Below are positions 41,517 through 56,525 of a stretch of DNA of 64,000 bases, piece after piece (the stretch's first letter is position 1; every line of letters begins with the position of its first letter). The position numbers and the translations under genes were made by a program. The DNA is from an uncultured delta proteobacterium (lineage in GTDB: Bacteria; Myxococcota_A; Polyangia; Polyangiales; B10-G4). Location: assembly GCA_963727445.1 (NCBI GenBank), contig CAVSGI010000015.1:352001-416000 (forward strand), read 5' to 3'. The notes under the pieces are model-generated. The model was not told the DNA's origin. It did not search any database and saw nothing but the letters and a program-made list of their open reading frames with translations.

Positions 41517-41561
41517 TTGAGAGGTGCGCATCGGAGATCATCGGCGTTCGGAGGAACCCCG

Positions 41562-43190
41562 ATGTCCCGAACGACGCTCGCCTTTTCTTTGATCGCCCTT
41601 CTCGTCGCCAGCGCTTGCGGTGACGACAGCACCGCCTCGGATGGCGGAATGGACGCGACAGCCGACGCCATGGGCGACGGCGGGGGAGGGGACACCTCGC
41701 TTCCCGACGGCGGTGGTGACACGAGCGTTCCGCCGGGTGACGGCGGCGGTGACACCAGCGTTCCGCCGGGCGACGGCGGCGGTGACACGAGCGTTCCGCC
41801 GGGTGACGGTGGCGCGGACTCCTCCATGGCCTGCGGCGACATCGGCATGGCCTGCTGCGCCGGGGGCAGCTGCACCAGCGGCACCTGCGTCGGCGGGATG
41901 TGCACCGACTGCGGTGCGCCTGGCGGCGGCTGCTGCCCGGGCGGGGGGTGCAACACCGGCGCGACCTGCGCGGGTGGCACTTGCGTCGTCTGCGGAGATC
42001 CGGGCACGGCGTGCTGCGACCTCGGCGTGTGCAGCGGCAGCGGCTGCTGCGTGGACGGCACCTGCACGGGCGCAGGCTCGACCTGCCCCGGCGTCATGGG
42101 GACCTGCATGGACTCGAGCTGCGGCGGCTGCGGCGCCGCGGGCGAGGCTTGCTGCGCCGGTCGCATCTGCACGGCGCCCTCGACGGAGTGCAACGGCGGC
42201 GGCGCGGGCACCTGCGAGGCTTGCGGCGGGCTCGGCGAGAGCTGTTGTGCGGGTGGCGGGTGTGACACCGGTGGCGTCTGCGCCGGCGGGACCTGCGTGG
42301 CATGCGGCGGCGACGGGGAGCCCTGCTGCTCGGGGCGCTCCTGCGATACGGGCTGCTGCGACGTGCGCACCGGGCCGGACATCTGCGTCGCCACGGGCAC
42401 TGATTGCACGGTGGGCACCTGTGGCTCTTCGGGCATGTGCGAGGTCTGCGGTGCGCCGGGCTCGCCTTGCTGTGCCGGGGACACGTGTGACGGCGGCGGC
42501 TGCTGCGACAGCGGGAGCTGCGTGGCCTCGGGCACCGCGGTGGGCACGCAGGTCTGCTCGGCCGGAACGGTCGTGGACTGTGGTGGCTCGGGCGAGCCGT
42601 GCTGCGACGGCGCGACTTCGTGCGCGGCGGGTGGGTGCTGCATCGACGGCACCTGTGTGGACGATGGCGCGACCTGTCCCGGCTTCGGTGGCGGCGGCGG
42701 TGCCACCTGCACCAGCGGCTCGTGTGTGACCGCCGGCGGGGGCGGGACGACCTGCGGCGGTATCGGTGAGGACTGCTGCGGCTTCGCCAACTACTGCACG
42801 GTGAGCGGCGCGGTCTGCGTCAACAATCCCTTCCCCACGCCCGACTCCTGTGAGGCGTGTGGTGGGGACGGCGAGGCGTGCTGCCCGGGTCAGGCCTGTG
42901 GTGGCGCGGGGAGCTGCTGCGTCGACGGCATGTGCGTCGCGAACGGCGACTCCTGCGGCGGCGGCGCGGGCACCTGCGTCGACGGAGGCTGCTCCGGCGG
43001 CACCTGCGGACGTCTCGGCGGCACCTGCTGCGGCGGCGGCCTCGGCTGCACCGAGTCCTTCACCATCTGTACCGGCGGCTTCGGCGGCAGCTGCGTCAGC
43101 TGCGGCGGCGAGGGCCAGCCCTGCTGCAGCGGCTGCGCCGATCCCTATCGCTGCACGGGTGGCTTCGGCGCGACCTGCGAGGCGCCTTAA
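41562..43190 (+). CDS. Cys/Gly-rich repeat lipoprotein
   Basis: Lipobox ASAC; three tandem DTSVPPGDGG(G) linker repeats; 12 CGxxGxxCC modules. Confidence 0.8.
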   Translation: MSRTTLAFSLIALLVASACGDDSTASDGGMDATADAMGDGGGGDTSLPDGGGDTSVPPGDGGGDTSVPPGDGGGDTSVPPGDGGADSSMACGDIGMACCAGGSCTSGTCVGGMCTDCGAPGGGCCPGGGCNTGATCAGGTCVVCGDPGTACCDLGVCSGSGCCVDGTCTGAGSTCPGVMGTCMDSSCGGCGAAGEACCAGRICTAPSTECNGGGAGTCEACGGLGESCCAGGGCDTGGVCAGGTCVACGGDGEPCCSGRSCDTGCCDVRTGPDICVATGTDCTVGTCGSSGMCEVCGAPGSPCCAGDTCDGGGCCDSGSCVASGTAVGTQVCSAGTVVDCGGSGEPCCDGATSCAAGGCCIDGTCVDDGATCPGFGGGGGATCTSGSCVTAGGGGTTCGGIGEDCCGFANYCTVSGAVCVNNPFPTPDSCEACGGDGEACCPGQACGGAGSCCVDGMCVANGDSCGGGAGTCVDGGCSGGTCGRLGGTCCGGGLGCTESFTICTGGFGGSCVSCGGEGQPCCSGCADPYRCTGGFGATCEAP

Positions 43191-46911: not shown

Positions 46912-48021
46912 TCACTGCGTCAGGAAGAAAGCCGACGCCACGGCCAGCAGCGCGAAGAGGAGCGCGGCCCAGATCCAAGGCGGCGTGGCGCGCGGCGCCG
47001 AGGCCAGCTCCTCGTCAGTGACTGGCGCCTCTTTCGCTGGCTTCGCCGGTGCCGTGGGCCGCCCGGAGAGGGTCGAGGCAGCGTTTGGAGGCGCTGGCGT
47101 GGTGGGGCGAACGAGGAATTCCCGGACGACCCGGCTCATCTCTTCTGCGAGCTCATCCGCGGTCTGGTAGCGAAGCTCCCTTTCGTGATGCATCGCTTTG
47201 GCGACCACTGCCTCCAGCGATTTCGGGAGCTCGGGCCGGTGCGTTCTGAGGCGTGGGTAGTCGCCCGTGAGGATCGCCTGCACCACCTCCATGTGCGGCT
47301 TGCGCTCCGCTTCTTCGCCCGTGGGCTTGAAGGGGTGGACGCCGGTGAGCGCTTCGTAGACGACGACGCCGACCGAGTACACGTCCGCGCGACGGTCGAC
47401 GTCGGGGTCTCCGCGGAGCTGCTCGGGTGCCATGTACTGGAAGGTGCCCACCGCGCCCCCCGTGACCGTCAGCTTTCGGCCGCCCGCCACCTTGGCGACC
47501 CCGAAGTCCACGAGCTTCACCATGGACTCGGCCCCCTCGAGGGACAGGCTCTTCTCTGGACCCGCCGGTAGGAAGACGTTCGAAGGCTTGACGTCGCGGT
47601 GCACCACGTCTTGAGCGTGCGCCGCGCTGAGCGCACCGCAGAGGCCCTGCACCACCGGGATCAGCAGCTGAAGGGGCATCCGCCCTTCACGGAGCACGAA
47701 GCTCTTCAGCGTCTCGCCCTCGAGTCGTTCGAGGGCGATGTAGAAGACCCCGTCCGGAAGGGTGCCGGCCTCCTTCACGCCCACCACCGCCGGGTGGTCG
47801 ATCTTCTGCAGCACCTGCGCCTCGCGCTTGAAGCGCTCGAGGAGGTGCTCGTCGTCCGCGAAGGCCGACCGCATCACCTTGAGCGCCACCTCCGAGCCGT
47901 CTTCGAGGTCGGTCGCGGCCAGGACCGCGCCCATGCCGCCCTTGCCCAACACCCCATCGATGCGGAACCGTTCTCCGACGATCTCGCCCTTGCCGAGATC
48001 CGTCATCCTCACCGGCCGCAT
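46912..48021 (-). CDS. Eukaryotic-like Ser/Thr protein kinase with C-terminal TM
   Basis: GKGGMG, VALK, HRDVKPSN, DFG and YMAPEQ motifs. Confidence 0.93.
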   Translation of the reverse strand: MRPVRMTDLGKGEIVGERFRIDGVLGKGGMGAVLAATDLEDGSEVALKVMRSAFADDEHLLERFKREAQVLQKIDHPAVVGVKEAGTLPDGVFYIALERLEGETLKSFVLREGRMPLQLLIPVVQGLCGALSAAHAQDVVHRDVKPSNVFLPAGPEKSLSLEGAESMVKLVDFGVAKVAGGRKLTVTGGAVGTFQYMAPEQLRGDPDVDRRADVYSVGVVVYEALTGVHPFKPTGEEAERKPHMEVVQAILTGDYPRLRTHRPELPKSLEAVVAKAMHHERELRYQTADELAEEMSRVVREFLVRPTTPAPPNAASTLSGRPTAPAKPAKEAPVTDEELASAPRATPPWIWAALLFALLAVASAFFLTQ

Positions 48022-48076
48022 TCGACCTTATTACCACCCTCCCGGACCGGCCAGCCAGGCACTATGCTTTCGAGCG

Positions 48077-49031
48077 ATGCGGATCGTTTTCGTCATGGAC
48101 CCACCGTCGACGGTCATCGTCGACGAGGACACCACCTTCGGGATCATGCTCGCCGCCCAGGCGCGCGGGCATCGCATCGATTACTGCCGCGTCCAAGACG
48201 TCTGGCTCGAGCAGGATCGGCCCGTCGCCGCCGTGCGAAAGGCGGTCGCGTCGCGCGACGCCGAGAGCCCGCTCACACTCGGCGCCGTGGAGGAGCTCCC
48301 TCTGGCCGAGGCCGACGTGGTCTTCGTGCGGAAGGACCCACCCTTCGACAGTCCCTACTTGTGGCTCACCTTGATCCTCGAGCATCTGCGGGACGACCGG
48401 ACCCTGGTCGTGAACGACCCCCGGGCGCTTCGCGACGCCAACGAGAAGCTCTACGCCCACCACTTCCCCGAGTACATGCCGAAAACCCTCGTGGTCTCGG
48501 ACGAGGGGCGCATTCGACGTTTCCTCGAAGAGCTCGAAGGCAGAGAAGCGATCATCAAGCCGGTGGACGGGCATGGGGGCGCCAGCGTCTACGCCATCGG
48601 GCTCGGCGGCCGAAACTTCCGCGGGCTCGTCGAGGCGGTGACCCACGGCGGCCGGCGCGTGGCCATCGTCCAGGAGCTGATCCCCGAGGTCACCCAAGGT
48701 GACAAGCGGATCCTCCTCCTCGAGGGTGAGCCCCTGGGCGCCATCCTCCGGGTCCCCACCGGCGGCGACGTCCGCAGCAACATCCACGTCGGCGGCCAGG
48801 TCGTCGCCACCGAGCTGACCGAGCGGGAGCGGGAGATTCTGCGCCGCCATGGGGCCGCGGCTCCGCGACGACGGCCTCTTCTTCGTGGGGATCGACGTGA
48901 TCGGCCCCTACCTCACGGAGGTCAACGTCACGAGCCCCACGGGCATCCAGCAGGCGTCGCGCCTGAGCGGTCAGGACCTCGAGACGCGCGTGGTCGAGGC
49001 CCTCGAAGCGCGGGTGGCTTCACGGAGCTGA
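48077..49031 (+). CDS. gshB: Glutathione synthetase, with a +1 frameshift near 48837
   Basis: FVMDP, RKDPPFD, NEKL and GDKRI motifs, then GIDVIG...EVNVTSPTG in the next frame; deleting one T in GAGATTCTGC restores [10 protein letters not shown]. Confidence 0.92.
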
Positions 49032-49046
49032 CCAGGGCCGCAATTG

Positions 49047-49080
49047 AAAACGGCGCCGTCGCGGATGCGACGACGCCGTC
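49047..49080 (-). terminator. Rho-independent terminator between convergent genes
   Basis: Stem ACGGCGCCGTCGC/GCGACGACGCCGT, 4-nt loop, TTTT on the minus strand. Confidence 0.6.
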
Positions 49081-49099
49081 TTCGATACGAAAGTGAAGC

Positions 49100-50706: not shown

Positions 50707-51501
50707 TCAGCGGCGGCGTCGGGAGGCCGAGGACGTCGTGTCGACCGGCTGCTGTCGCGGTGGTGGTGTGACCGGGGTCTCGCGCGGCGGCGTGGTGTGG
50801 ACGGGCTCGGGGGTCTCCTCGAGGGTCCCAGGGCCAGTGGACGTGGTCGTCATGGCGGGCGTGGTCGTCATGGCGGGCGTGGTCGTCGTGGTGGACCTGG
50901 TCGTCGTGGTGGACATCGTCGTTCGGCGTCGTCTCGGTCTCGGCGTCTCGGCGGGTGGTGGGCCGGTGGCCGGCGGCCCGGCGTCGGGCGGGCCGGCATC
51001 GACGGCGCCCTCGTCCGGCTCCCACTGCTCACCCCGCATACGCGCCTCGTGCTCGGCCTCCGAAATGGGCTGACCGTTCCACGTGGCCGGCAGCCATGCC
51101 CGGGTGGTGTGGCAGTCCCCGCAGGTGAGCGGGAAGGTGAGGTGGTCCGGGAAGGTGTCGTCGTCGTAGGTGTCGCGGTGACAGTCGACGCACGCGCCCC
51201 CCATCCCCTCGAACACCGGCGGGTCGTCATCGTGACAATCGAAGCATTCGACGTGTGCGTGCGCGCCGGTCAGCGGCCACTCGTGCTCGACCACCCGCCG
51301 CGGCCTCCACCTCTCGGTGGTGTGGCACACCGCGCATGTCGTCGGCTTCTCCCCCACGTGATGTCGCGCCCCCTGGTACTCCTCGAGATGGCACGACGCG
51401 CATCGCGCCGAGCCCGCGTCGGGCGAGGCCTCACCACCGTCCGCGCAGCCGAGGAGCGAAAGGCAGAGGAGCCACGAGCCGATGGCGCGCGCGGCGCGCA
51501 T
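50707..51501 (-). CDS. Pentaheme cytochrome c lipoprotein with Pro/Thr-rich C-terminal tail
   Basis: Lipobox LLGC; CASCH, CAVCH, CFDCH, CVDCH and CGDCH; ATG overlaps the NOX stop (TGATG). Confidence 0.85.
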   Translation of the reverse strand: MRAARAIGSWLLCLSLLGCADGGEASPDAGSARCASCHLEEYQGARHHVGEKPTTCAVCHTTERWRPRRVVEHEWPLTGAHAHVECFDCHDDDPPVFEGMGGACVDCHRDTYDDDTFPDHLTFPLTCGDCHTTRAWLPATWNGQPISEAEHEARMRGEQWEPDEGAVDAGPPDAGPPATGPPPAETPRPRRRRTTMSTTTTRSTTTTTPAMTTTPAMTTTSTGPGTLEETPEPVHTTPPRETPVTPPPRQQPVDTTSSASRRRR

Positions 51502-53492
51502 CAGAACACCTCCTCACGAAACGGCATGCCGAGCGACTCGCATGCACGCCGGACCTTCGCGCCGAGCCCCGGCGGGCCACAGAAGTAGACGGAGACCTTT
51601 TCGCCGCGGTGCGCCTTCTTGATCGCGGCGAGCTCCTTCTTCCAGCTCGGCGCGCTCATGCGCGTCTTGGCCCGAAGGCCGGTCGCGAGGTCCGTCCGGC
51701 CGTATGCGTGTGCGAGCTCGCGCGCAGCTTCGAGCCCGAACGCCGTCGCACCCGTGCGCCCGCCGGTCATGTGGAGGTGGAGCTCGAGCACGTCGCGCGC
51801 GTCGCGTCTCTCGACTTCGGCGAGCAGATCCCGGAACCATTCGAAAGAGCGCTGATCCCGGTTGAGCCAGAAGAAGTGCGCCTTGTCGAGGTTGGGACCG
51901 CTTCCATCCTCGCGCGAGACGATGCTCTCGAGCACGCTGGCGAAAGGCGTGACGCCGATGCCCGCGCCGATGAGCACAGCGACGCGCGACTGGAAGATGT
52001 GGGCGCTCGGTGAGCCGTAAGGCCCGTCGAGAAACACGAAGAGGTCGTCCGGCGCCTCCCCGCTTCGCGCCTCCGCCAGGCTTCGGAGAGCCTCCGTCCA
52101 GTTGCCGAGCGAGCGCACGTGGAGGGTGATGGTGTCGCGCTCGGGCGCGCTGCTGATCGTGAACGGGTGCCACTCGTGCTTTGCCACGGCGGGGATGCGC
52201 ACGAAGACGTAGTCCGCGGGCGAGAACGAAAAGCCGAGGGGCCGCTCGATCTCCACCCGCGTGACTCCGGACTTCAGCGGCTCGATCGCGAGGATGCGTG
52301 CGCGCCGACCACGCCGGAGCGCGCGAAAGAGCTGCTCGACGCCGAAACCGAGCAGAGGCAGCCCCAGCCACAAGAGGACGTGCGGCGCGTGAATGACGAG
52401 GAGAACGAGCAGCGGCGCATAGAGCAGGTGCGTGAAGTAGAAGATCTCGAAGCGCCGCGAGCGCCGGAAGAAGCCGAGAGCGGCGATCCACATCACGACG
52501 AAGATCACGACGAGCAACGAGCCCGTGAGCCCCGTCTTCGTCTCGAAGAGCGCATGGGTGATCGGCTCGTCGTGCCCCGCGGAGTAACTCGCGACGAAAG
52601 CGCCCACGTGAGCCAGGCTCCCGAAGAAGAACGTGTGCCCCACGACCTTGTGGAAGGCGACCGCGGAGTCGATCGGGATGAGGCGCCCGAGAAAGCTGGC
52701 GCGCAGCCGCGTGAGAAACCGGCGCGCCACGGGCACGAGCACCACACCCGCGTCGAAGGCGAGCGCTGCCCCGGTGGCGCGCCCGACGCGCATCATCACG
52801 TGCTCCCCCAGGACCATGTTGTACGTCGCGACGAAGAGCCCGACGTTCATCAGCGCGAAGGCGGCGAGCACGATGCCGCCCCGCACGTGGTTTTCGACGA
52901 AGCGCGCGAACGCGTTCGGCTCGGGCTCGCCACCCGTCTCGTCGGTCAGGCGTGCGACCACGTCGCGACCCGGGGCCATCCACAGAGCCTCGGCGCGTGC
53001 CATCTCGTGAAGGAGCTCCGGGCGCGCACGAACGAGTCGCTCGAGCTCCGCGAAGGAGACGCGCCCGTCGCGGTCGGCGTCGAGCGCCTGGAGCAACCCG
53101 AGCGCGAGCGTCTCGGGCGAGTGCTCCTCGTCCGGCTCGATGTCGTCCTCGGCGAGGCCGATGGCGATCATCCGCTCGAGCTCCGTCTGCGACAGATATC
53201 CGTCGCCGTCGTGGTCATGCAGACGAAACGCGAAGGTGAGGCGGTCGTTGTCGGTGCCGTAGACGAGCTTGCGCACACCTTCCATGAACTCCGCGCGGCT
53301 GACGGATCCGTCCGCGTCGGTGTCCAGCTGCGCGAGCATGCGCTGGGCCAGGTACTCGCTCTTCAGCCCGAGCGCTTCCTTGAGCGATTCGACGTCGATG
53401 TGCGGCGCGTCCCCGGCGATCTGATCGAATCGGTGCTGGAGCAGATCGAGGGTCTGGGCCCCGGGCTTTGCGCGACGCGGCGAGTCGGTCAT
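51501..53492 (-). CDS. EF-hand NOX5-like NADPH oxidase / ferric reductase family flavocytochrome
   Basis: EF loops DTDADGSVSRAE, DHDGDGYLSQTE and DADRDGRVSFAE; heme His pairs spaced 14 and 13; TGLTG; HPFTISSAP; DGPYG; GAGIGVTPF; FCGP; C-terminal EVF; GGAGG RBS. Confidence 0.9.
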   Translation of the reverse strand: MTDSPRRAKPGAQTLDLLQHRFDQIAGDAPHIDVESLKEALGLKSEYLAQRMLAQLDTDADGSVSRAEFMEGVRKLVYGTDNDRLTFAFRLHDHDGDGYLSQTELERMIAIGLAEDDIEPDEEHSPETLALGLLQALDADRDGRVSFAELERLVRARPELLHEMARAEALWMAPGRDVVARLTDETGGEPEPNAFARFVENHVRGGIVLAAFALMNVGLFVATYNMVLGEHVMMRVGRATGAALAFDAGVVLVPVARRFLTRLRASFLGRLIPIDSAVAFHKVVGHTFFFGSLAHVGAFVASYSAGHDEPITHALFETKTGLTGSLLVVIFVVMWIAALGFFRRSRRFEIFYFTHLLYAPLLVLLVIHAPHVLLWLGLPLLGFGVEQLFRALRRGRRARILAIEPLKSGVTRVEIERPLGFSFSPADYVFVRIPAVAKHEWHPFTISSAPERDTITLHVRSLGNWTEALRSLAEARSGEAPDDLFVFLDGPYGSPSAHIFQSRVAVLIGAGIGVTPFASVLESIVSREDGSGPNLDKAHFFWLNRDQRSFEWFRDLLAEVERRDARDVLELHLHMTGGRTGATAFGLEAARELAHAYGRTDLATGLRAKTRMSAPSWKKELAAIKKAHRGEKVSVYFCGPPGLGAKVRRACESLGMPFREEVF

Positions 53493-53587: not shown

Positions 53588-56525
53588 CTACGTGTACTGC
53601 CAGAACGCGCAGGCGGCGGTCTCGTCGGCGTTCACGAAGACGTAGACCACACCGAAGAGCCCTGCGTCCGGCCAGTCGTCCTTCGCGCCTCCGATGCCGT
53701 CGAAGTCGAGCTGAAGGAGGAAGCGATAGGGAACCTGGCCCTTGCCGAGGATCTCGCGCGGGTGCTGCACCCAGGTTGGCGTGCCGCCGATCTTCGAGAA
53801 CCCGTCCGAGCGCGGCAGGTCGAGGGCTTCGAGGGCCTCGGCGAGCTCGGGATCGCGCTGCGTGAGAGGCGAGGCGCGCGCCTCGTCGATCTCCCACGTC
53901 GGCTCCGAGACCATCAGGGCGCGTGCGTCGAGCACGGGCCCCATCGGATCGCACGCCGCCGCCCTGCCGAAGTCTTCCTTGGAGATCAGGCGCACGCGAT
54001 TGTGCAGCAGGCTCTCCGTCGCGATGCCGCTCGTGTCGACCCAGACCGAGACGCCCGCGTGCTTCTTCAGGAGATCGCCGGTCTCGATCTGGAGCAGGAG
54101 ACCGAGGGGATGCGAATCGCTCCCGTCGCGGAGCTCGCCCATCACCTCTTCGCGCTGTTCCTCCGGAACCTCGAAGAAGTTCAGCTCCTCGGGCAGGTGC
54201 CAGGTCAGCTGCTGCAGCACCTCCCTTTCGGTGGTGGGCCACGCGTCGAGCCCTCCGTCGGCCGGGAGGCCCCCGAGGTGGCTTCCCTTCACGGGGTCGC
54301 TCGCCGGACCGCCGAGGCTGATGGTGCGCATCGGTACGCATGCGAGGCGCTTCAGCTGCTCTTCGCCGAGCTCCTTGGCCGACACGAACCCGTTCTCGCG
54401 AGCCCCAGCGACGAGCTCATCGAGCTTCGTGAGGGCGGCCTCCGGAGACTTCGCTTTGGCAGGCTCGGCTTCGATGGCGGTACCGACCTCGCCCTCTTCG
54501 ACCAGCACCTCCTTGCCCGTCGTCTTCGCGAACCACACCATCGCCCCGTCGTCGTCGACCCGGTAGAGAGCCGCGCTCCGCGACTCCACCACGTCCCCAG
54601 CGCCCGTTCGTTCCCCGAGCTTGGCCGCCTCGTCGAAGGCCTCCCCGAGAGCGAGCGTGTAGTGCCCCCATGCGTCGTCGGGGTTCTGCACGTGGAGCGT
54701 TCGCGTCGTGGGATCGAAAGCCCAGTCGTCGCAGATCACGCGGAACGCCATGTCCTCGTTCGTGTGTCCGAGGCGCAAGTCGTCGGGCAGCGTGAAGGAC
54801 CCCAACTCGTCGCAACCCCCGAGGTCGAAGCGGAAGATGCTCCCGCTCCGGAAGTTCACGATGAGCGTTTGCCCCGTCTTCGGATCCGAGGCGACGGCCC
54901 GCCACGAGTCGTCGTTGAGCTCTCCCATCTTCGGCGGAAGCACCGGTTTGAAGACGTCGCCTTCGAGCACCGCCGCCTCCTCCCAGCCGATCCGGACGGC
55001 CGCCCCGAGGCCGTGATCCCAGATCAAGTGGTAGCCGACCTCGAAGTCGTCTTTGCCGCGGGCGTAGCCCTTGGGTTGCGGTGAGCTCTTCTTCGCCTTT
55101 TTCCACGACCCCTTGGCCGCATCGAAGAGGAGCACCTGGTTCGAATCTGCGCCCCTTGGTCCGGCCGCCCCACACGACGATGCGCTCTTCCCTCGGATCG
55201 AAGACGAGCTTCGTCCACATGCGCAGCTTCCAGAGCTTCGCGTCGGGGTCGGCCTTCTGCACCCACCGCCCGTCCTCGAGTGCGAAGACATGACCTTCGT
55301 TCGAGATGGCGAGGAGGCTACCGTCACTGGTCTCGACCATGCCTGCGAGGGCGTGCGTATTGCCGCCGCTCCCGCCACCGTCCCAGAGGTCCTTCTGATC
55401 GCTCTTTCCGACGATCGTCTTCCAGCCGTCGTCCGTCCACTCGATCAGCGTCAGGTAGTAGTTGCCCATCATGCGCCAGCGCCCACCCACGAAGATGCCG
55501 AAGCGCTTTGCATACAGATCGCCGACCGCGCTCTTCTTCTCCGTCACACCGAGCTTCTTCCAGCTCCCGCGCCTCTCGACGTAGAAGACGTGTTGATCCT
55601 CGGGATACTTCTCCTCTGCAGGCTCGTAGCCGCCTGGCCCCGTGACGAACCCGCCCAGGGACGCATCGAAGGTCGCGTGTGCCTTCCGGGAGGCGGGCCG
55701 CGGGTCGCCATCCTCGCCCCACGGCTTCCAGCCCCCATCGTAGATCAGCGTCCCACGCCTCCAACCACAGAGCGCGACGACGCCATCCGGGTGGGAGACG
55801 AGAATCGGCCCGGTGTTCATCCAGCCGGTGATCAGATCCTCGTGCATGCCGTCGTTCGGCAGCAACTCGAGCGTCTCGCCGTCCCAGGCGTAGAGCCACA
55901 GGCGGTCTTCTTCTTCCGCGTCCTCACACACCCAGTAGAAGAGCGTGCGCTCGGTCTTCGGATCCCAGACCCCGCCGAGGCACTCCTCCTTCCAATTCGC
56001 GTCGTTCGGCAGATCCGCGTCGTCGCGCTTCTTCGCCCACACACCCTCGGCGTCGAGCTCCCACACGCCGAGACCTGTGACGCACACGGTGACGCCCCGC
56101 TTTCGGTCGTAGGCGAAGCAGCCACCCGTGTCGTCCGAGTCCTCGAGGCGCTTCGGGTGATCGCCCGAGAGCTCGAGCATCTCGGGGCCCTCGGCTGTCA
56201 GGATCACCGCGTAGGTCATGTCCGAGTAGTCGCGTGCGTTGCAGAAGTTCCACGCGACGACGGCTTCGCGCGACACGTCGTAGACGCCCTGCCATCGTTG
56301 CTTCGGGCTCTCGGTCCGAACGGCGACGTCGCTCACCTGAACGAAGGACGCGCCATCCCACTCCCAGGCATGCCCGAACTGGTGGAAGTCCGGCGAGTGC
56401 ATGTAGATCGTCCTCTGCCGCTTCTCGTCGTAGACGAGCACGTAGTCCGCGAGGAACTCGCGCTTCGGCGGCAGCTCGATCGACGCCTCGCGCAGAGGTC
56501 CCGCCTGTGTGAACGCTAGCTCCAT
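53588..56525 (-). CDS. Large Trp-rich beta-propeller protein with WGR-like and C-terminal DUF1963/YwqG-like regions, with a +1 frameshift near 55144
   Basis: ORFs 54417..56525 and 53588..55378 join after removing one base in GCAGATTCGAAC; SHLGGLP, SKIGGTPTWVQ, FLLQLD and FWQYT motifs. Confidence 0.7.

Follow-up and report, generated by a model that had tools for sequence, protein, structure and literature searches.

A NOX5-like flavocytochrome and a multiheme cytochrome lipoprotein form a conserved two-gene module, a probable redox pair of the myxobacterial inner membrane

Introduction

The closest described relatives of the enzyme studied here are human NOX5 and csNOX5 of Cylindrospermum stagnale (PDB 5o0t/5o0x), which combine N-terminal EF hands, three canonical and one non-canonical, with a ferric-reductase domain (FRD) holding four heme-ligating His residues and with FAD/NADPH domains, and which as described require no cytochrome partner. 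In csNOX5, a pair of Asp residues, D611 and D631, is required for activation by Ca2+. The NOX signature consists of His101, His119, Thr178 and Gly179 (PMC3591440), and His119 is presented as the site that defines NOX enzymes (PMC3591440; PMC9568551). Yet Dictyostelium NOXC, which has no His119, is reported to be linked to ROS (PMC3591440).

Other systems offer precedents for protein acceptors. SpNOX of Streptococcus pneumoniae is a constitutive NOX-type flavocytochrome with no EF hands, no canonical O2 pocket and no known natural partner; it is reported to reduce O2 at 48 per min and cytochrome c, directly, at 125 per min (PMC11564096), and it has been suggested to serve an acceptor protein (PMC11031084; PMC11564096). 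SpNOX is also reported to be able to reduce SOD, so that inhibition by SOD can mislead when taken by itself (PMC11564096). According to a recent structure paper, it is not known what SpNOX and csNOX do, and acceptors other than O2 are possible (PMC11031084). In the MsrQ-MsrP (YedZ-YedY) system, which acts with Fre, NAD(P)H-derived electrons leave the outer heme of a membrane domain of the ferric-reductase type for a periplasmic protein encoded with it, and this transfer, like the reduction of cytochrome c by SpNOX, serves as a precedent here (PMC11031084; PMC11564096). Finally, OmcS and OmcE are described as having a heme ligated by a neighbouring subunit (PMC9473688). We found no paper in the literature that describes the pairing of a NOX5-type enzyme with a multiheme cytochrome, in agreement with the sequence-only reading that had singled out this locus.

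Results and Discussion

The window, by which we mean the whole stretch of DNA that was analysed, comprises 64,000 nt from an uncultured delta proteobacterium (GCA_963727445.1, contig CAVSGI010000015.1, positions 352,001-416,000, forward strand). Two minus-strand ORFs, 53492..51501 and 51501..50707, encode proteins of 663 aa, ending in E-V-F, and 264 aa, with five CxxCH motifs (C34, C56, C86, C104, C127) and a lipobox-type LLGC19. The features, in window coordinates, are as follows.

51501..53492, minus strand: NOX5-like flavocytochrome, 663 aa, with EF domain, 6-TM ferric-reductase domain and FAD/NADPH dehydrogenase domain
53028..53435, minus strand: EF-hand domain, residues 20-155; canonical loops at residues 57-68, 93-104 and 138-149; first loop non-canonical
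52317..52913, minus strand: transmembrane domain, residues 194-392; heme-b ligands H281, H295, H355 and H368; R238
52596..52598, minus strand: F299, replacing the O2-site His (NOX2 His119, csNOX5 H317); S302, three residues on, replaces a conserved Asn
52572..52577, minus strand: G306-H307, specific to the clade, at the outer end of TM3 / loop C; possible axial ligand of a cytochrome heme
51504..52307, minus strand: dehydrogenase domain, residues 396-663; HPFT, GIGVTPF, CGP and C-terminal E-x-F; G581 at the csNOX5 D611 position, D601 at that of D631
51499..51503, minus strand: TGATG stop-start overlap (translational coupling), the commonest junction of homologous pairs (36/71)
50707..51501, minus strand: pentaheme c-type cytochrome lipoprotein, 264 aa
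51445..51501, minus strand: signal peptide with lipobox, Cys19; lipobox-like motif in 64/71 partners (loose pattern)
51109..51402, minus strand: five-heme core, residues 34-131; five CxxCH; conserved non-motif His H48, H73, H81 and H120
50752..51084, minus strand: Pro/Thr-rich low-complexity linker; tail median 72 aa, 58% P/T/S/A (50 complete five-heme partners)
50710..50745, minus strand: C-terminal motif P-D-x-x-[TS]-x-[AP]-S-R, in 36/50 complete five-heme partners

The sequence-only reading had described a 663-aa protein with the NOX5 domain order and a C-terminal ExF, three canonical EF loops and a degenerate one, four heme His, and a stop codon overlapping the start of a lipoprotein with five CxxCH motifs. 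All of these held: the ORF, Pfam domains and NOX5 matches agree, the TGATG runs from 51503 to 51499, and the four His are invariant in 121/121 aligned homologs. Pfam matches above cut-off in the NOX subunit are EF-hands, Ferric_reduct, FAD_binding_8 and NAD_binding_6, and human NOX5 is both its best PDB sequence match (E 1.6e-106) and the best Foldseek match of its model (8u87, TM 0.76; mean pLDDT 87.9). Identity to csNOX5 is 35% over 677 columns, and that to SpNOX is 15-16% by structural alignment. A match to XopAW, far under cut-off and due to the EF hands, was rejected.

The protein thus shares with NOX5 and the NOX-EF enzymes an N-terminal EF-hand domain with canonical Ca2+ loops and a six-TM FRD that carries four heme His and is joined to FAD and NADPH domains. 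It also has the FAD/NADPH motifs, the D631 equivalent, R238 (equivalent to NOX2 Arg54 and csNOX5 R256, and kept in 86% of the cytochrome-coupled clade), and T323 and G324 (equivalent to Thr178 and Gly179). Across that clade, H281 (His101) is found in 56/56, the Thr178 position is T in 49/56 and S in 7/56, and the Gly179 position is G in 56/56. Unlike NOX5, it has replacements of the O2-site His and Asn, a new periplasmic Gly-His, a Gly in place of D611, and a coupled multiheme cytochrome gene. It is also unlike MsrQ, a stand-alone YedZ-type FRD with no fused dehydrogenase or EF domain whose periplasmic acceptor is a molybdoenzyme; here EF, FRD and dehydrogenase domains are fused and the partner is a tethered multiheme cytochrome c.

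We examined synteny in 122 full-length NOX homologs. A gene for a five- or eight-heme cytochrome lies downstream in 56/56 full-length members of one clade with downstream DNA, and in 0/58 of the other homologs with downstream DNA; the 56 homologs followed by the cytochrome make up that single clade. Its support was SH 98 (FastTree), SH-aLRT 92 (IQ-TREE, 50 rows, TM3-end/loop C columns removed), and 99 once csNOX5 and animal NOX5 were added. In a quick IQ-TREE tree of 44 rows rooted on animal NOX5, the clade nests within His119-bearing myxobacterial homologs. The cytochrome also adjoins 10/11 partial or frameshifted loci of the Gly-His type, and a short contig (L115) has a Gly-His NOX with no cytochrome start within the 272 bases after it. 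Gaps between the two genes, measured by first start codon, are -4 to +5 in 66/71 pairs. Because the pair is kept across many genomes, it is not a product of chance, and the synteny check that the sequence-only reading had called for was clearly passed. We conclude that the NOX5-like gene and the gene for the five-CxxCH lipoprotein are a conserved two-gene module. The pairing arose once in this clade, so the 56 loci count as one evolutionary event. Distances of the NOX and cytochrome proteins correlate (Mantel r 0.58, 52 pairs), although this is weak since kinship is shared.

We also looked beyond the two genes. A larger operon was rejected, as, generic kinases aside, flanking genes other than the cytochrome recur only among closely related loci, and an apparent NOX-cytochrome fusion at one locus (L068) proved to be a frameshift. 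No cytochrome domain is fused to NOX among the best 120 matches of 364-1161 aa, viral contigs scanned with the cytochrome gave no match, a promoter/terminator scan gave chance-level results, and no RNA holder is listed for the locus.

The clade differs from its relatives at the outer face of the membrane domain. The O2-site His is present in 0/56 clade members vs 54/55 outgroup sequences, and the Asn in 0/56 vs 50/55; in the subject protein, F299 takes the place of His119 in the NOX signature (PMC3591440). The periplasmic Gly-His307 shows the opposite pattern (56/56 vs 0/55), and in the best 119 database matches, Gly-His occurs in 110 of 113 readable ones and Ala-His in 2, with 1 false pattern match and 6 unread. 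A sister clade (n=10) lacks the His in 9/10 and the Asn in 10/10, and has no His at 307 and no adjacent cytochrome. Thus, loss of the O2 site predates the pairing and by itself is no pointer to it. Taken with the adjacent cytochrome gene, this loss suggests that electrons probably go to the cytochrome rather than to oxygen, and loss of the O2-site His and Asn together with gain of a periplasmic His would fit a protein acceptor.

The partner is related to the cytochrome c7 family, based on its match to Cytochrome_C7 in Pfam (29.6 bits vs a cut-off of 24.8) and on its Atlas neighbours, which are C7-family clusters. Eight-heme forms, with a distal three-heme domain in place of the C-terminal motif, make up 12/63 complete partners, and one partner (L110) has just two hemes. 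We rejected a general sorting role for the C-terminal motif, as this protein is its sole match in the genome (strict pattern). A PDB sequence search with the cytochrome gave no match, and an apo model of the core (pLDDT 81) had no PDB match by Foldseek or VIA-align, as expected for a heme-held fold modelled without its hemes.

Across 66 cores, the five hemes are accompanied by four conserved distal His, one short of a distal His for each heme. Relatives of the cytochrome in other contexts have a His lying 8-12 residues ahead of heme 1 in 18/21 cases vs 13/71 NOX partners, and a His at position -10 in 13/21 vs 3/71. A second site also differs, being F/L/M/Y in 21/21 relatives vs K/R in 65/71 NOX partners. 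The 13 partners that do have the N-terminal His were not foreseen by the idea of a ligand supplied in trans; at least 5 of them are non-lipoprotein forms.

From these data we propose, as a rather probable reading, that the two genes of these Polyangiales-type myxobacteria encode a redox module of the inner membrane in which NOX electrons pass to the cytochrome. The NOX subunit would oxidise cytoplasmic NAD(P)H at FAD and move electrons via two b hemes to the periplasmic face, a path indicated by homology and by retention of all cofactor residues; the electrons would then be handed to the translationally coupled multiheme cytochrome c, anchored by a lipid or a helix. The N-terminal two-heme unit appears to be one distal His short, and NOX His307 is the leading candidate to fill that site in trans, a proposal we regard as evenly balanced; such ligation would fix a cytochrome heme beside the outer b heme. 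The OmcS and OmcE filaments likewise have a heme c with a distal His supplied by a different polypeptide, but they are cytochrome homopolymers rather than a membrane enzyme ligating its partner, and no sequence or fold match between them and the cytochrome was found. When the NOX transmembrane domain (residues 192-398), the five-heme core and four hemes were co-folded, this pair alone, the median score was 0.25 against a mark of 0.32, which weighs neither for nor against a contact. For the earlier proposal that the NOX donates electrons to the cytochrome, synteny and residue changes fit a protein acceptor, and the transfer itself is inferred.

We considered that the cytochrome might instead be a relocated active site, with a five-coordinate, ligand-deficient heme reducing O2 to superoxide or peroxide, or carrying out NO or peroxide chemistry, and with His307 serving in docking or proton delivery. 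The His count does leave one heme open, there is no conserved downstream carrier, the five-heme tail has no redox centres, and the L110 partner has only two hemes. However, the prediction places the open heme in the N-terminal unit close to the anchor, and related proteins close this site with a His of their own; moreover, eight-heme forms have a distal three-heme domain on a long linker, which suits onward transfer. We therefore judge this reading to be unlikely.

We think it more unlikely still that the NOX generates superoxide and that the cytochrome, under shared regulation, scavenges or senses this superoxide and is reduced by it, with no direct electron path. SpNOX is reported to reduce O2 without the canonical His/Arg site (PMC11564096; PMC11031084), R238, T323 and G324 are kept, and the sister clade works with no neighbouring cytochrome. 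Nevertheless, a diffusible link fails to explain the strict translational coupling, the invariant periplasmic His found only with the partner, or the corresponding loss of a His from the partner itself. A ferric (or cupric) reductase regulated by Ca2+, with the cytochrome extending the outer heme's reach to periplasmic metal chelates for assimilation, would agree with the absence of His119 from FRD-superfamily ferric reductases (PMC3591440) but is very improbable: no iron-uptake gene recurs beside the pair, and the ferric reductase activity reported for SpNOX is very low (PMC11564096). In its first steps this idea is a variant of the proposed electron transfer to the cytochrome, and it differs solely in the final acceptor.

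The earlier suggestion of Ca2+ control fared less evenly. Three canonical EF loops are present in 51/56 clade members, and the D631 equivalent is Asp in 56/56. In contrast, the other Asp of the csNOX5 regulatory EF-binding region, D611, corresponds to Gly in 52/56, although 29/55 outgroup sequences also have no Asp there. The EF hands are thus very well kept. They may have retained Ca2+ binding, and they probably gate turnover, by way of a contact that would be unlike that in csNOX5.

The cytochrome may have been recruited from a family that elsewhere serves a single cluster of FAD/Fe-S oxidoreductase, cytochrome-b-like membrane protein and porin-cytochrome genes, and would then have been cut to 5 or 8 hemes and have gained its Pro/Thr linker. 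Genomes of the same order have a six-gene cluster, for which we found no name in the literature, comprising a 4Fe-4S/FAD oxidoreductase, a four-His cytochrome-b-like membrane protein, an 8-23-heme lipoprotein, 20-23-heme and 10-heme cytochromes, and a probable beta-barrel; the source genome has its own copy (G000:C10:1379650-1388282). The labels "porin" and "cytochrome b-like" are predictions, with no Pfam match above cut-off. The NOX partner has its nearest family in the lipoprotein of this cluster, which shares its N- and C-terminal heme units but mostly has its own extra His and lies beside a porin, and the NOX module has two genes only. Beside the NOX pair we found no conserved porin or further cytochrome, unlike in a porin-cytochrome EET conduit, where genes for an outer-membrane beta-barrel and for periplasmic or extracellular cytochromes accompany the module, and a related barrel occurs in 8/48 pair-holding genomes (a search of that barrel family). 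A wire to the outside, as the earlier picture may be read, thus gains no support from this search. A periplasmic protein or envelope target, reached via the linker or the distal three-heme domain, seems a more likely final acceptor than an outer-surface mineral.

We also note a second lineage, sister to cyanobacterial NOX5, in which His119 is absent in 4/4 members. At its one readable locus, the NOX gene lies last, with an ATGA overlap, in an operon that also encodes a probable porin and cytochromes with 5, 4 and 10 hemes. Judged by its sequences, this distant lineage lacks His119 independently, and the link to a multiheme operon is that one locus. A fuller proposal, which we offer only tentatively, is that a NOX5-derived enzyme has been rebuilt as a Ca2+-gated NAD(P)H:cytochrome c transmembrane oxidoreductase that gives its partner's first heme the sixth ligand, and that bacteria have coupled NOX5-like genes to multiheme cytochromes on at least two independent occasions. 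If true, the module would be an electron outlet to the bacterial envelope under control of a Ca2+ signal, pointing to envelope redox regulated by Ca2+ in myxobacteria, and the cytochrome would be the first natural protein acceptor of a NOX5-type enzyme. The module would name a concrete acceptor for a bacterial NOX, tied to defined residue changes.

NOX5-like genes were present in 69/401 genomes searched in the same order, showing that such genes are commoner among bacteria than the few published cyanobacterial cases indicate. Besides the cytochrome-coupled form, the source genome itself has a canonical NOX5-like paralog (G000:C9:351218-353098), and the two together provide a natural comparison for oxygen vs protein specificity in NOX enzymes.

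The NOX5-like gene and its cytochrome partner

We found that the two genes stand as the sequence-only reading had described them, joined by a TGATG overlap:

Window 53492..51501, minus strand: NOX5-like gene, 663 aa, with EF-hand, ferric-reductase, FAD and NADPH regions
Window 51501..50707, minus strand: five-CxxCH lipoprotein gene, 264 aa, whose tail is Pro/Thr-rich and whose end is basic

Human NOX5 was the best solved relative of the 663-aa protein both by sequence (E 1.6e-106) and by fold (TM 0.76), and named homologs came from Polyangiales, Polyangiaceae and Sandaracinaceae, which points to a Polyangiales-type myxobacterial host. Elsewhere in the window, an upstream DUF1963/Kelch-like gene seems to be split across two overlapping frames (53588-56525) and a glutathione synthetase gene seems frame-shifted close to its end (47762-49096), both probably through assembly indels; a 557-aa protein with Cys/Gly-rich repeats and a lipoprotein-like signal lies at 41517-43190.

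The pairing arose once in the main clade

NOX5-like genes were present in 69 of 401 genomes searched within the order, while a phylum-wide sample gave matches in 6 of 401 genomes, only one of them from outside the order; that protein keeps the canonical His, and its locus has no CxxCH. We collected loci from the matching genomes of both searches and from the best 80 of 567 metagenome matches, leaving 122 full-length proteins after removal of partial, frameshifted and duplicate rows. Conservation of the neighborhood, which had been proposed as a check, held within one clade: a multiheme ORF began just past the stop in 56 homologs and was absent in 58, the downstream DNA being too short to decide in the other 8. 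The 56 cytochrome-paired proteins and one undecided row formed a single clade (SH 98), with support of 92 when 50 rows were analyzed without the diagnostic columns and 99 when csNOX5 and animal NOX5 were added; in the latter tree it was nested within myxobacterial homologs bearing His119 (NOX2 numbering). Pairing in the clade has one origin; thus, the count of 56 loci shows retention across divergence to 45% identity, not repeated gain.

Of the partial or frameshifted loci, 11 encoded the clade's Gly-His and had DNA downstream; the cytochrome was also present at 10 of these, the exception (L115) having none within 272 bases after the NOX gene. Among 71 distinct partners, 36 had a TGATG-type junction, and complete partners had five hemes (50), eight (12) or two (1). 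The two-heme form (L110:5202-5570), which retains the N-terminal unit alone, may mark a minimal docking unit or an assembly repeat collapse. No other neighboring gene was conserved among the collected loci. A second NOX5-like paralog of the source genome (L014, G000:C9:351218-353098; 39% identity) retains the canonical His and Asn and lacks a cytochrome, which makes it a natural control for the coupled form. At a single locus (L062), 9- and 10-heme cytochrome genes are encoded divergently from a canonical NOX5-like gene.

The O2-site His is lost and a predicted periplasmic His gained

All cofactor residues of the NOX subunit are kept, so that, as read from the alignment, the NAD(P)H-FAD-heme-heme chain is intact. 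Of 55 outgroup homologs, 54 have the O2-site His four residues past the outer-heme ligand and 50 have the Asn three residues beyond it; none of the 56 clade members has either. We take the csNOX5 equivalent of the O2-site His to be H317; the +24 offset used here recovers D611 and D631 as well. Conversely, TM3, which ends at residue 306 in the structure model, carries Gly306-His307 at its outer end in 56/56 clade members and 0/55 of the outgroup; by analogy with NOX topology, the loop there would face the periplasm. The clade retains the Arg54-equivalent Arg and the Thr-Gly pair. The proposed O2-reduction center is made up of His119 and Arg54 (PMC9568551, PMC11031084), and His119 belongs to the signature distinguishing NOX from ferric reductases (PMC3591440).

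The O2-site His (in 9 of 10) and Asn (in 10 of 10) are also gone from a sister clade of 10 proteins, which has neither His307 nor an adjacent cytochrome. Thus, pocket loss came first, and His307 arrived with the partner. At two sister-clade loci (L075:5727-7280; L076:3281-4195), the gene next after NOX is presumably an ApbE-like flavin transferase, recognized by eye from its sequence, hinting at a flavinylated acceptor.

The cytochrome belongs to a larger family

The partner's family is built of a repeat unit (three hemes, three His) and an N-terminal unit (two hemes, one His); across 66 aligned cores, four His are conserved outside the five motifs (H48, H73, H81, H120). The family also occurs away from NOX, in a six-gene cluster of the same order:

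G000:C10:1379650-1388282 (L197, the copy in the source genome; also L200-L219): 4Fe-4S/FAD oxidoreductase, four-His membrane protein, lipoprotein (8-23 hemes), 20-23- and 10-heme cytochromes, probable barrel

The oxidoreductase and membrane protein were each found at 19 of 21 loci and the barrel at 17; the membrane protein is cytochrome-b-like and has one further invariant periplasmic His. This cluster resembles a trans-envelope conduit driven by NAD(P)H. We found no name for it, and passages of a peat preprint (10.64898/2026.05.27.727921) deal with other clusters.

A His 8-12 residues ahead of heme 1 is present in 18 of 21 parent-cluster lipoproteins and 13 of 71 NOX partners; a second position changes from hydrophobic to Lys/Arg in the partners. 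Read most simply, the ligand strand once present in the partner was lost and a His from the NOX loop took over its role, although the 13 partners with an N-terminal His, several of which have no lipobox, count against a strict replacement rule. OmcS and OmcE provide precedent for ligation across subunits (PMC9473688).

After a variable linker, 36 of 50 five-heme partners end in P-D-x-x-[TS]-x-[AP]-S-R (window 50710-50745), which, by a strict pattern, occurs in the source genome only in the 264-aa lipoprotein. That genome has more than 30 ORFs carrying at least three CxxCH each, and a further large cluster of multiheme cytochrome ORFs, with 6 to 29 motifs apiece (G000:C2:64867-79759).

Probable electron route and calcium

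Sequence and homology establish an altered O2 pocket, a coupled partner, and a His deficit in the cytochrome with a His gain in NOX. From these features, the NOX subunit would probably transfer electrons directly to the cytochrome; that His307 ligates a partner heme is about evenly balanced. In SpNOX, O2 reduction need not stop when the pocket is lost, and cytochrome c is reduced by the exposed outer heme at a higher rate than O2 (PMC11564096). Of the outward wire that had been proposed, the cytochrome pairing is conserved, but a parent-cluster-type barrel occurs in only 8 of 48 genomes having the pair, many of them incomplete; thus, export by the parent-cluster route cannot be general.

As for the proposed Ca2+ control, 51/56 clade members have canonical sequences in all three of EF loops 2-4 compared to 14/55 of the outgroup, so Ca2+ binding looks selected, and we somewhat favor Ca2+ gating. 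However, the equivalent of csNOX5 D611, required with D631 for activation (PMC7317449), is Gly in 52/56 clade members, and gating, if present, likely does not act through the csNOX5 contact.

Known systems and a second lineage

The module would work like MsrQ-MsrP. It is built from NOX5, but the NOX signature has failed at His119, and thus it should not be classed as plain NOX5. We found no published account of the pairing in a search of mainly open-access main texts; passages of PMC5676040 and PMC11564096 mention bacterial NOX5-like genes only from cyanobacteria.

The sole outgroup protein without His119 (L164), which also has no Gly-His, falls in a lineage placed as sister to cyanobacterial NOX5 with support of 99. 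All four database members of this lineage lack His119, which is kept in the other 111 readable matches of that search (5 were unread). The L164 gene is the last of an operon, overlapping the preceding gene by ATGA:

L164:230-7968 (AT-rich metagenome contig, separate from the main clade): 5-heme gene, probable porin gene, 4-heme gene, 10-heme gene, NOX5-like gene

This suggests that the same shift toward multiheme cytochromes happened twice, the second case being one locus.
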